A stretch of 18,068 nt of DNA from Candidatus Latescibacterota bacterium (GCA_038279365.1 JAYODI010000005.1:80289-98356); one strand, 5' to 3'. Positions 6,021 to 8,864 are shown, counted from the stretch's first letter. Notes: a model not told the origin generated them from the letters alone. Made by a program: numbers and translations.

Positions 6021-6530
6021 ATGAACGCGGCACTCTCACAATTTGTACAGGTCGTCAAACGCATCCCTCTCTTTGAAAGCCTCCAAACAGAACACGTCGT
6101 GGCTTTGCTAAAGGTATGTGATCGATGCAAGCTCGAACCCCGCGAAACACTGTGCGTCTATGGCGACCCAAGCAAAGAAATGTACATCCTTCTCAATGGC
6201 GAACTTTCCGTACGCACAGCAGAAGGTGTTCAATTTGCCAAAATCAAACCCATTGCCCCTGTGGGTGAAATGGGTATCTTCACCGGAGAGCCACGCTCAG
6301 CCACCGTCTTGGCCAGCGAAACGTCTTCATTGCTCGTTTTAAGCAAAGCAAAACTCGACATGTTCATGCGACGCAACCCCCCCATTGAAATTGCCATATC
6401 TCGCAGTCTCATAACCACCCTCTCCCAACGTCTGCGCACAGCCAACCAAGAAATTTCCCACCTACAACATCTCATTGCCGACCAAGGGGCCAAACCCGAA
6501 GATGTTTTGGATGACGCCTCTGAAACATAA
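6021..6530 (+). CDS. Stand-alone cyclic-nucleotide-binding domain protein (no HTH)
   Basis: IPLFESL, GDPSKEMYILLNG and phosphate-binding cassette GEMGIFTGEPRSATV. The C-helix LSQRLR is followed by a short coiled/acidic tail rather than a CRP HTH. Confidence 0.85.
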   Translation: MNAALSQFVQVVKRIPLFESLQTEHVVALLKVCDRCKLEPRETLCVYGDPSKEMYILLNGELSVRTAEGVQFAKIKPIAPVGEMGIFTGEPRSATVLASETSSLLVLSKAKLDMFMRRNPPIEIAISRSLITTLSQRLRTANQEISHLQHLIADQGAKPEDVLDDASET

Positions 6531-6554: not shown

Positions 6555-6574
6555 GCCACCATTTTACAAAATTT

Positions 6575-6661
6575 TGGTGCGGACGGGGGGACTCGAACCC
6601 CCACAGGCGCAAGCCCACTAGATCCTAAGTCTAGCGTGTCTACCAATTTCACCACGTCCGC
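6575..6661 (-). tRNA. tRNA-Leu (anticodon TAG)
   Basis: GCGGACGTGGTGAAATTGGTAGACACGCTAGACTTAGGATCTAGTGGGCTTGCGCCTGTGGGGGTTCGAGTCCCCCCGTCCGCACCA: acceptor stem GCGGACG/CGTCCGC, anticodon loop CTTAGGA, long variable arm, GTTCGA T-loop, encoded CCA. Confidence 0.97.
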
Positions 6662-6680
6662 ACACATCAGATAAGCTCTA

Positions 6681-6709
6681 AAAGTAAACCTTTGTGCCAC
6701 ACACCGCAA
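6681..6709 (-). promoter_or_regulatory. Probable sigma70 promoter of tRNA-Leu
   Basis: TTGCGG-N17-TACTTT about 20 nt upstream of the mature tRNA 5' end and just downstream of a terminator. Confidence 0.5.
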
Positions 6710-6724
6710 GCAAAAATCATGACT

Positions 6725-6767
6725 AAAAAAACAAAAGGCGCCGACACATAAAATGGTCGACGCCTTT
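6725..6767 (-). terminator. Intrinsic terminator after the 77-aa ORF
   Basis: Minus strand AAAGGCGTCGAC-CATTTTATGT-GTCGGCGCCTTT then TGTTTTTTT. The G-U pair is valid only on the minus strand. Confidence 0.75.
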
Positions 6768-6791
6768 ATTAACTTCATTTAAAGTATGTAT

Positions 6792-7025
6792 TTATATTTG
6801 ATTGTCCATTACAAGTTCCAAGCCCACATCGTTCAATGCTGTAGGGCGAATATGTCGTTTTTTCAATTGTTGGGTCAACTCGTGCAAATAACCCCGAATT
6901 CTTGGATCGGTATGCACTTTTTTCTGGAGTTTCCAGTATAAAACAGCCAATTCTCTATCTTGTGCGCTCACTGGATGATTCTCCTGTTGAGGTTGTTGTT
7001 GCACTGTATTTTGAATTATCGGCAT
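6792..7025 (-). CDS. Hypothetical 77-aa protein (Gln-rich N-terminus, helical/basic core)
   Basis: ATG preceded by AAGGA (7036-7040). Followed by a terminator and preceded by a sigma54 promoter. No family recognised. Confidence 0.65.
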   Translation of the reverse strand: MPIIQNTVQQQPQQENHPVSAQDRELAVLYWKLQKKVHTDPRIRGYLHELTQQLKKRHIRPTALNDVGLELVMDNQI

Positions 7026-7039
7026 CTTCTAAATTTCCT

Positions 7040-7153
7040 TTAACGATTAATCTTCAACGCATCTACCCGATCCAAAATGGCAAGGCTGATAAACACCAAA
7101 AACGCCATACCAGCAATAATTCCCACCACCAACACAGACATGCTCAACACCAT
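7040..7153 (-). CDS. Unlisted 37-aa single-pass membrane microprotein (MVLSMSVLVVGIIAGMAFLVFISLAILDRVDALKINR)
   Basis: Manual translation. SD AAGGTGG at 7159-7165, an uncharged hydrophobic N-terminal stretch of about 27 residues, and a charged tail. The TAA stop overlaps the SD of the next ORF. Confidence 0.65.
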   Translation of the reverse strand: MVLSMSVLVVGIIAGMAFLVFISLAILDRVDALKINR

Positions 7154-7202
7154 AAATACCACCTTTTGTTATACCAATAAGGATGTGTCTCTTATGCCTA
7201 TC

Positions 7203-7217
7203 GCAACGTCCGTGCCA
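7203..7217 (-). promoter_or_regulatory. Sigma54 (RpoN) -24/-12 promoter
   Basis: Minus strand TGGCAC-GGACG-TTGC is an exact match to TGGCAC-N5-TTGC. It is intergenic, has an AT-rich upstream region, and predicts +1 near 7191. Confidence 0.8.
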
Positions 7218-7257
7218 TATTTTAAAAAAATCTCTAAACCCATTAAAAACAAATAAT

Positions 7258-7288
7258 AAAAAAAGGCCACACCAAAAGGTGTGACCTT
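7258..7288 (-). terminator. Intrinsic terminator downstream of the histidine kinase
   Basis: Minus strand AAGGTCACACC-TTTT-GGTGTGGCCTT then TTTTTATT. Confidence 0.7.
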
Positions 7289-7347
7289 AAAACCTGCAAA
7301 ATTACACTGCTTTGAGGAATTTTTTTCCGTTATAAAAATCCCTTTTA

Positions 7348-7376
7348 TTGACTTTTCGGAACCCGCGTCCTACGAT
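7348..7376 (+). promoter_or_regulatory. Near-consensus sigma70 promoter oriented antisense to the kinase gene
   Basis: TTGACT-N17-TACGAT with A/T tracts upstream (UP-element-like). Confidence 0.5.
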
Positions 7377-7406
7377 AAACGTTGGCAAAACACCCAATCA
7401 TACGTT

Positions 7407-8864
7407 TTAGGCCAAATGCGATTCTTTTTGCTTAACAGGAAAAGTCAAAGTAAACGTCGTGCCAACGCCTTCTTCACTTATCACATCAACCGTGCCACCA
7501 TGATTTTCGATAATGCGGGCACAAATCGCCAAACCAAATCCGTGACCTGTTTTTTTGGTTGTAAAACCCGAGTCAAAAATGCGCGTCACCACTTCTTTAG
7601 ACATACCAGGCCCATGATCGGTCACCACAACCGACACGCGGTTTTCTGCTTCCATAAACCGCGTAACTGTTTCAATTTGCCCCTCACCCATGGCATCAGC
7701 GGCATTGGCATATAAATTGATCAATACCTGTTGAATTTGCCCTGGGTCAATATCTAACAAAGGCAATTCAACTCCCAAATCGAGCGAAAACCCAACCTTA
7801 TGAAACCGGCTTTGCCCTTGGATAAACGCAATTAATTTCTCAATGAGTAAGTTGATATGGGCCGATTCTGTTTTAGAGCGCAACATACCCAAATCCATCA
7901 AACCAGATGCAAATTGTTCCATTTGGGCCAACTGATCAATAATGGCATTTAAACTGCGTGCAATGCGCTCCTCTCCTTTGAGTTTGGGATTGAGCAACAT
8001 CAACTCTGCATGCCCCATTAAAACCGTGAGATAGTTCTTAAGTTCATGGCCAATCTCTGCCGACATTTGTCCTGCCATGGCCAATTTTTCAGCTTGGATC
8101 AAACGCGATTCTAATATCTTACTGTCCGTAATATCACGAAAACCCAACACAACCCCATCTTGGTGAGGTGCTATGGTAATTTCAAAATACGCCAACGCAT
8201 CTTGGGTGTGTTTATATTCTAATGAAATGGTTGTCATTTCACCAGACACCATCACCTGCATTAAGGTTTGACGCACGCCACCACTCAATTGGGGTGCCAA
8301 CTCAAACAAATCTCTTTCCAGCAAATCATCAGTTGCCACATCATCAAAAATAGAACGGCGCTCTGTCAATCGGTTCCATCTGCGCACAATACAGTTGCTG
8401 TCCAACCACAAAATGCTATCGTACAAACTTTGTACCAGTGTTTCATCGAGTCGTCGCACACGCTGTGCCGTAATTTTGGCCACGTTTTGCAAAATCCGCC
8501 GATGCAAATGTGGGTATGTATCAAAACACGTATTGAGATCGTCTTGCGTAAACTCATATACTTCTGTGGGTTTCATCGCACGCACAGTTGCACTGCGAGG
8601 TTCACGATCAACCAAGGCAAGTTCACCAAAACACTCCCCCTCACCCAATGAGGTCAAAACCTCTTGCTGTTGATCAAGGGTGGCTTTTTCTACCCGAACC
8701 ATACCCGATACAATGACATACATCGCATCACCCATCTCGCCTTCGGTCACAATGGCCTGATGCGCTTCAAATGATCGGGGTTTTGCAAAATCAAAAAACA
8801 AGCGTTTGTCTTCTAAAGACAACCCCTCAAACAAGGCAATTTGTATATTATCATAATTCATCAC
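7407..8864 (-). CDS. Cytoplasmic sensor histidine kinase: cNMP-binding + PAS-like + HisKA + HATPase (NtrB/AtoS-like transmitter)
   Basis: cNMP cassette FGELALVDREPRSATV, PAS-like region ending FRDITD, EKLAMAGQMSAEIGHELKN H-box, N-box LINLYANAADA, G1 DHGPG, F-box IFDSGFTTK, G2 GHGFGL. No transmembrane segment. GGAG SD before GTG 8864 / ATG 8861. Confidence 0.92.
   Translation of the reverse strand: MMNYDNIQIALFEGLSLEDKRLFFDFAKPRSFEAHQAIVTEGEMGDAMYVIVSGMVRVEKATLDQQQEVLTSLGEGECFGELALVDREPRSATVRAMKPTEVYEFTQDDLNTCFDTYPHLHRRILQNVAKITAQRVRRLDETLVQSLYDSILWLDSNCIVRRWNRLTERRSIFDDVATDDLLERDLFELAPQLSGGVRQTLMQVMVSGEMTTISLEYKHTQDALAYFEITIAPHQDGVVLGFRDITDSKILESRLIQAEKLAMAGQMSAEIGHELKNYLTVLMGHAELMLLNPKLKGEERIARSLNAIIDQLAQMEQFASGLMDLGMLRSKTESAHINLLIEKLIAFIQGQSRFHKVGFSLDLGVELPLLDIDPGQIQQVLINLYANAADAMGEGQIETVTRFMEAENRVSVVVTDHGPGMSKEVVTRIFDSGFTTKKTGHGFGLAICARIIENHGGTVDVISEEGVGTTFTLTFPVKQKESHLA

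Follow-up and report, generated by a model that had tools for sequence, protein, structure and literature searches.

In Salmonella and Escherichia coli, the flagellar operons flgMN, flgKL and fliDST carry both middle-class and late-class promoters, and in Campylobacter flgM has a sigma54 and a sigma28 promoter. Outside the model phyla, knowledge of flagellar regulons comes almost entirely from homology, so lineage-specific parts are overlooked. Here we describe a small unit on the minus strand (positions 6725-7288) of an 18,068-nucleotide (nt) stretch from a Candidatus Latescibacterota bacterium (GCA_038279365.1 JAYODI010000005.1:80289-98356, G000:C19:80289-98356 in our genome set; hereafter the window), whose genome assembly (G000) comprises 6.03 Mb in 199 contigs at 46.5% G+C. 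In order, the unit contains a sigma54 promoter, a micro open reading frame (micro-ORF) for a membrane peptide of 37 amino acids (aa), a sigma28 promoter, the gene of a 59-aa three-helix protein and a terminator, and it is real and self-contained. All the signals that an earlier sequence-only reading had placed here were located on the minus strand where it put them. We consider the unit to be, with fair probability, a lineage-specific two-gene accessory or regulatory module of the Latescibacterota flagellar/motility regulon with two promoters in series, a reading within which we infer the actual use of the promoters, their timing and any biochemical role.

As in flgMN, flgKL and fliDST, an upstream promoter of the middle class and an internal FliA promoter would act in tandem, and the distal gene would be expressed weakly at an early stage and more strongly later on. 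This regulatory design is of a known kind; the proteins are new and form orphan families confined to flagellated Latescibacterota. Unlike those operons, the unit does not lie in a flagellar cluster, its host has an FlgM and an FlgN of its own, and its products are unrelated to FlgM, FlgN, FlgK/L or FliD/S/T (no Pfam match). A sigma54 promoter needs an NtrC-type activator. With such an activator, the upstream promoter would give a transcript of ~460 nt encoding the 37-aa membrane peptide and the 59-aa cytoplasmic protein, and the sigma28/FliA promoter in the end of the micro-ORF would give a shorter one, of ~280 nt, for the 59-aa protein only. In such a sigma54-then-sigma28 hierarchy, membrane peptide and soluble protein would both be made at the basal-body/hook stage, and the soluble protein would be boosted after hook completion, once FlgM releases FliA. 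The pair would then probably contribute to flagellar assembly or to motor function in an accessory or regulatory capacity; that a membrane microprotein and a soluble partner act as a regulated module, as had been suggested, is plausible. If this function is confirmed, the unit would be a new small-protein component or regulator of the sigma54-then-sigma28 flagellar hierarchy, and whether or not a function is found, the locus lends itself well to studying how two promoters time the production of small proteins. Here, the two promoter motifs together with phyletic profiles and tests for selection place a pair of orphan micro-genes in the motility programme of an uncultured phylum, and they also correct the gene model.

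Two promoters in series

To follow the unit across relatives, we used a set of 14 orthologous loci that represent several genera and families (L002-L007 and L009-L016; L008 was left out as its contig ends just upstream of the gene). The whole layout is kept in 14 of 14: a sigma54 motif, the micro-ORF, TAAAGGAA-N10-TGCCGAT, and the 59-aa ORF with its Shine-Dalgarno (SD) sequence. Both ORFs are under purifying selection, with dN/dS values of 0.02-0.5 (Nei-Gojobori method; synonymous sites approach saturation even between members of the same genus). Joint conservation of the two peptides with dN/dS below 1, which had been proposed as a check on the unit, is thus found in the relatives.

The best-conserved nucleotides of the whole unit belong to a sigma28/FliA-type promoter between the two genes (TAAAGGAA-N11-GCCGATAA, 7016-7042, minus strand), with its -35 box at 7042-7035 and its -10 box at 7023-7016. 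The E. coli sigma28 consensus, as tabulated in PMC2859248, is TAAAGTTT-n11-GCCGATAA, and the window reads TAAAGGAA-ATTTAGAAGAT-GCCGATAA at 7042-7016. That consensus is matched exactly by the TAAAG of the -35 box, by the spacer of 11 nt and by each of the 8 bases of the -10 box (GCCGATAA); the sigma28 consensus is identical to the enterobacterial one (PMC2859248). Across the orthologous loci the form TAAAGGAA-N10-TGCCGAT(A/T) is present without exception (14/14), and it is kept both in loci where, as in the window, the micro-ORF ends at TAA and in loci where it continues in another frame, so that what is constrained is the nucleic acid (DNA or RNA) rather than an encoded peptide. In the window the TAA stop of the micro-ORF (7042-7040) forms the first three bases of the -35 box. 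What had been described as a stop overlapping the SD of the next ORF is better read as this -35 box.

The host genome has the matching sigma factor, since fliA (FliA_WhiG, 277 bits) is found at C48:13352-14020, within a fliOPQR-flhB-flhA-flhF cluster. Sigma28-like motifs (TAAAG/TCAAG-N-xxCGATA) precede five of its flagellin genes, one of them with an exact GCCGATAA, and they also occur before flgM, a methyl-accepting chemotaxis protein gene, a CheY-like gene and a DksA-like gene. A position weight matrix trained on eight sigma28-type sites of this genome, with the studied site left out, ranked that site ~11th among roughly 12 million genome positions. The strict sigma28 pattern occurs 10 times in the genome, with ~3 occurrences expected under equal base frequencies. 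The ATG of the longer, 77-aa frame, in which the second gene had first been seen, overlaps the -10 box, and a FliA-driven transcript could therefore encode only the 59-aa form.

Upstream of the micro-ORF by ~50 nt lies the sigma54 (-24/-12) promoter (TGGCACGGACGTTGC, 7203-7217, minus strand), an exact TGGCAC-N5-TTGC with a transcription start predicted near 7191. No other exact match occurs in the window, where matches with at most one mismatch number 6 against 2.71 expected. At the orthologous positions the motif is again present in all 14 loci, with at most one mismatch and with GG and GC intact (consensus TGGCAc.g...TTGCgat), which bears out the sigma54-type promoter proposed from the sequence. 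rpoN, whose presence was to be confirmed, is found on contig C1 of the same genome (Sigma54_DBD, 204.6 bits). Expression had been thought to be strictly signal-gated through sigma54; gating is probably not by sigma54 alone, because the internal sigma28/FliA promoter stands directly before the second gene.

At 99-100% identity, the unit is matched by contigs that were assembled from the RNA libraries of four studies. Two of them, X15 and X17 (6900-7149 and 6990-7166), cover the micro-ORF and bridge the internal promoter, and two others, X16 and X19 (6778-6991 and 6804-6998), cover the 59-aa gene. X16 and X19, which come from two studies, have their upper ends at 6991 and 6998. These ends lie 10-17 nt downstream of the sigma28 start that is expected 7-9 nt below the -10 box, and at most they hint weakly at a 5' end near 7000. 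No contig lies over 7167-7400, which is compatible with the predicted sigma54 start, nor is there one over 6670-6771, and such gaps are no evidence of absence.

Elsewhere in the host genome, top-scoring sigma28-type promoters precede tiny unannotated ORFs at C9:31453, C127:122549, C118:3869 and C26:28471. Two of these ORFs encode membrane proteins (67 and 61 aa), another has 71 aa, and one of 61 aa is followed by a CheY-like gene. None has a Pfam family, and they possibly encode further small late-flagellar proteins. One of the best sigma28-type promoters of the genome is found at C164:7047, before a gene for a DksA/TraR-type zinc-finger protein of 148 aa.

Association with flagella and with a cyclic-nucleotide-binding kinase

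The genome that carries the unit encodes a full flagellar gene set, with flgA, flgH, flgI, a flgJ-like gene, flgN, flgK, flgL, fliW, flaG and fliD and eight Flagellin_N matches; its FlgM genes are found elsewhere in the genome. A sigma54 motif lies 57 nt upstream of the rod gene flgF/G. One flagellin gene (start 37174) also has a sigma54 motif (TGGCATACCCATTGC, C194:37031-37045), and the other flagellins have sigma28 motifs, which suggests that the flagellins fall into two classes, as they do in Vibrio, Helicobacter and Campylobacter. With sigma54 motifs before a rod gene and one flagellin gene, both promoter types of the unit therefore serve flagellar genes in this organism.

The distribution of the 59-aa gene follows that of flagella. 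Flagellin was detected in 20 of 61 related genomes and relatives of the 59-aa gene in 15 (host genome included), every one of which has flagellin. None of the 41 genomes devoid of flagellin has the gene, and many of these are complete single-contig assemblies (genera g5 and g7). Genus g8 is split accordingly: one genome (G042) has both the gene and flagellin and another (G032) has neither.

Several observations weigh against a flagellar assignment. In none of the loci examined does the unit have a flagellar gene as its neighbour. Five of the 20 flagellated relatives have no match (G004, G051, G053, G059 and G060); G004 probably appears to lack the unit because its kinase gene (see below) lies at a contig end and the place of the unit is not assembled. 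The genomes are related and not independent; perhaps three loss events underlie the co-occurrence. A phylum-wide sample of 151 genomes has the 59-aa family in only 12, confined to three families, and this protein is therefore not a core flagellar component. The host genome has ~26 full-length sigma54 activators (among 30 Sigma54_activat matches) and 64 exact sigma54 motifs; sigma54 control alone is therefore no pointer to flagella. As regards sigma28, the flagellin promoter at C194:38757 is ~230 nt from its gene and several top-scoring sites precede the unknown tiny ORFs described above, so the regulon is validated only in part. Paralogs of the 59-aa gene are found outside flagellar contexts: some adjoin sigma54 activators, and one kind separates mraZ from rsmH. 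Finally, the RNA-library contigs are assemblies that cannot give starts, strand or a single transcript, and they may include carried-over DNA.

Directly upstream of the unit lies a histidine kinase gene (7407-8864, minus strand) with cyclic-nucleotide (cNMP)-binding, PAS, HisKA and HATPase domains in Pfam, and it raises the question of whether the unit is the output of this kinase and not specific to flagella, co-occurrence with flagellin being a shared loss in a few reduced lineages. We hold this to be unlikely. The kinase is directly upstream of the unit in the five annotated f1/f2 loci. Its orthologs are found in 14 of 61 relatives, 13 of which also carry the unit, and the exceptions to the pairing are contig ends or incomplete assemblies. 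These nearly equal profiles hold even in f4, where the kinase stays beside lptD-dtd-maf and the unit is elsewhere, unlinked. The best NCBIfam matches of the kinase, both below the cut-off, are AtoS and ZraS, the type of kinase that pairs with sigma54 activators, and small cNMP-binding proteins flank the locus. Nevertheless, an output of the kinase alone leaves the conserved sigma28 promoter unexplained, and no response regulator was found beside the kinase in the loci checked, including those of f4 genomes. The kinase is itself confined to flagellated genomes (all 14), so the kinase and the flagellar readings are compatible: within a motility programme, the kinase may act on the sigma54 promoter, for which it is a candidate input through an NtrC-type regulator. 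The unit also offers a handle on a cyclic-nucleotide-sensing kinase of the same distribution.

Small stand-alone cNMP-binding proteins accompany the kinase: one site is in the window (6021-6530), and two such proteins lie beside a second copy of the kinase in genome G058 (L074). Kinase and cNMP-binding proteins together may provide a cyclic-nucleotide input to motility.

The 59-aa protein and its gene model

The second gene is most likely 59 aa long, with a GTG start at 6971-6969, an SD (AGGAG) at 6985-6981 and a stop at 6794-6792 (6792-6971, minus strand), rather than 77 aa, as judged from its conservation. The 77-aa frame proposed for it (6792-7025) is indeed open in the window; it is the length of the gene that probably does not hold, since the conserved core has 59 aa. 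Across relatives, conservation jumps from variable sequence with indels to a near-invariant one at V/M-S-A-Q-D, and a start codon is present at the start of this core in all 18 loci used here, with a purine-rich, SD-like stretch before most of them (weak in a few). The 18-codon extension (6972-7025, minus strand) is open in the window and variable in relatives, and it is probably the 5' untranslated region of the sigma28 transcript. The core evolves under strong constraint (dN/dS 0.02-0.21 for the second ORF), and many of its database homologs are 59 aa long. In one orthologous locus (L016:1454-1629, G009:C322) the gene is frameshifted after ~18 codons, either as a pseudogene or by an assembly error in a genome that is 84% complete.

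The protein was predicted by AlphaFold2 to be a three-helix bundle with high confidence (predicted local distance difference test, pLDDT, 93.8; predicted template modelling score 0.77). Comparison of this model to known structures returned generic bundles: the best Foldseek hits in the PDB, at E 1.1, were three-helix bundles of no particular kind, and the best VIA-align score against 48,161 chains (Z 6.2) was within the helical-bundle background. The ESM Atlas gave unnamed clusters (best score 0.83). At the sequence level, neither protein of the unit has a family in Pfam or NCBIfam, and a PDB sequence search had no match below E 0.1. The second ORF has 33 clusters in a set of 5.8 billion proteins, all unnamed or "hypothetical", and a profile search for the 59-aa family among 1.84 billion representatives retrieved 19 clusters only. 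The sequence-only reading had recognised neither product, and with no known family or defence model matched and no structural hit clearly above background, this assessment stands. A weak match of the 59-aa profile (E 1.3e-7) was seen in residues 1074-1133 of P0051, a 3326-aa polyvalent protein with SLT and ART-PolyVal domains; a chance similarity between helices or the capture of a domain is the probable cause, and the match was treated as uninformative.

FlgM, the anti-sigma28 factor (PF04316), resembles the 59-aa protein in being small and encoded behind a sigma28 promoter. The Pfam profiles, that of FlgM included, match neither the window protein nor 18 family members at E values up to 5. 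Free FlgM is largely disordered, unlike the well-packed three-helix bundle predicted for the 59-aa protein.

Paralogs of the 59-aa protein occur at other sites. Two of them (L049:1376-1531, the same as L017, and L052:6001-6159, the same as L018) directly follow NtrC-type sigma54 activators. The first has its own exact TGGCAC-N5-TTGC, 65-83 nt upstream of the gene, and the second is placed between a PAS-activator and a PAS/GAF kinase with a response-regulator activator. In two f4 genomes a third kind, of 68 aa, is encoded between mraZ and rsmH, where the cell-division (dcw) cluster begins (L053:5800-5964 and L054:5914-6063; also L019 and L020), and it has neither a micro-ORF nor a sigma54 or sigma28 motif.

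Small anti-activators of sigma54 enhancer-binding proteins are a known class, with FleN for FleQ, PspA for PspF and HrpV for HrpS. By functional analogy, the 59-aa paralogs recall these in that they lie directly beside NtrC-type activators, one with its own sigma54 motif; they have no sequence match and no clear fold match to them. It is conceivable, and we rate it as quite unlikely, that the 59-aa protein founds a new family of small regulators whose targets are sigma54 enhancer-binding activators or the sigma54 holoenzyme. The flagellar copy, made late from the FliA promoter, would then feed back on the sigma54-dependent middle genes, the 37-aa peptide would hold it at or release it from the membrane, and the paralogs would act likewise in other circuits.

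Very unlikely, in our view, is the original model of a single sigma54 transcript for 37-aa and 77-aa proteins, in which TAAAGGAA serves as SD, the ATG at 7025 is a translationally coupled start and the likeness to sigma28 is coincidental. It has in its favour that many close relatives share with the window an uninterrupted 77-aa frame, that gene callers produced 77-aa models, that AAAGGA lies 10 nt before an ATG or GTG in 11 of the 14 loci, that the frame is open from this start to the core in 9 of them, and that X15 and X17 bridge the junction. Yet the start codon is CTG instead of ATG/GTG in three of the 14 loci, the extension has in-frame stops in five (including L004, of the same genus, and L010), and its variable, indel-bearing sequence departs from the almost invariant core, where all 18 loci have a start codon, mostly behind an SD-like stretch. 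An SD plus start codon would moreover not need the conserved T and the full GCCGAT(A/T), and like motifs precede flagellins and flgM in the same genome.

The membrane peptide and the flanks of the unit

The micro-ORF (7040-7153, minus strand) encodes a 37-aa single-pass membrane peptide (MVLSMSVLVVGIIAGMAFLVFISLAILDRVDALKINR), a kind of gene usually missed by gene callers. Its ATG is 5 nt after an SD (AGGTGG, 7164-7159). The micro-ORF is present in all 14 orthologous loci, with no indels in its first 33 codons, a length of 37-55 aa and a dN/dS of 0.10-0.52 in the core. Each product carries a single hydrophobic helix together with the motif G-x-(A/G)-F-L-(V/I)-x-(V/I)-S-x-A-I-L-D. The window peptide is built of a short uncharged N-terminus, this helix and a charged tail (DRVDALKINR), and by the positive-inside rule the C-terminal tail would face the cytoplasm. 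A complex prediction for the 59-aa protein and the 37-aa peptide, run with alignments, scored 0.00; it had no controls and speaks neither for nor against binding.

AcrZ, KdpF and MgtS are small membrane proteins that modulate larger membrane complexes. Like them, the 37-aa peptide is single-pass, shorter than 50 aa, conserved and presumably condition-regulated. Unlike them, it is always paired with a small soluble protein and tied to sigma54/sigma28 control, and it has no homology to any of the three.

A programmed +1 frameshift that would join the micro-ORF to an AKGNxxxAD tail, which is in frame in some relatives, was considered as well. It was rejected because the frame relation is inconsistent between loci (that of L016 differs) and because the sigma28 promoter explains the nucleotide motif. 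For that motif an RNA structure or a CsrA site had also been entertained, and both were set aside in favour of the promoter match.

The toxin/antitoxin-like pair once suggested here, or a defence pair in which a membrane-damaging peptide is neutralised by its partner, is hardly credible: only the general shape of a small hydrophobic peptide beside a small soluble protein speaks for it, and it is opposed by the absence of any PADLOC, Pfam or NCBIfam match, a primary locus that is chromosomal, stable and syntenic across genera (with paralogs in other contexts), strong purifying selection, no mobile-element context in the window by Pfam annotation, and strict co-occurrence with flagellin.

Downstream of the unit, a tRNA-Leu gene (anticodon TAG, 6575-6661, minus strand) was detected by ARAGORN and is the sole match of an Rfam search (tRNA, 61.8 bits). 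Over 6568-6669, RNA-library contigs from many other organisms pile on this tRNA and run into unrelated flanks, so that depth there is uninformative for this genome.

The unit itself is bounded by two intrinsic terminators on the minus strand. The upstream one (7263-7288; 11 pairs and a T-run in a terminator scan) ends the histidine kinase gene and marks the 5' boundary of the unit. Its hairpin folds at -18.7 kcal/mol (z -7.06; 0 of 200 shuffles equally stable), and an AT-rich spacer separates it from the sigma54 motif. The unit is closed by the downstream one (6725-6767), a hairpin with a U-run that has a folding energy of -20.8 kcal/mol (z -6.25; again 0 of 200 shuffles equally stable) and that was missed by the simple terminator scan because its stem is bulged. 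Hairpins are also found in relatives at the position that matches this terminator.

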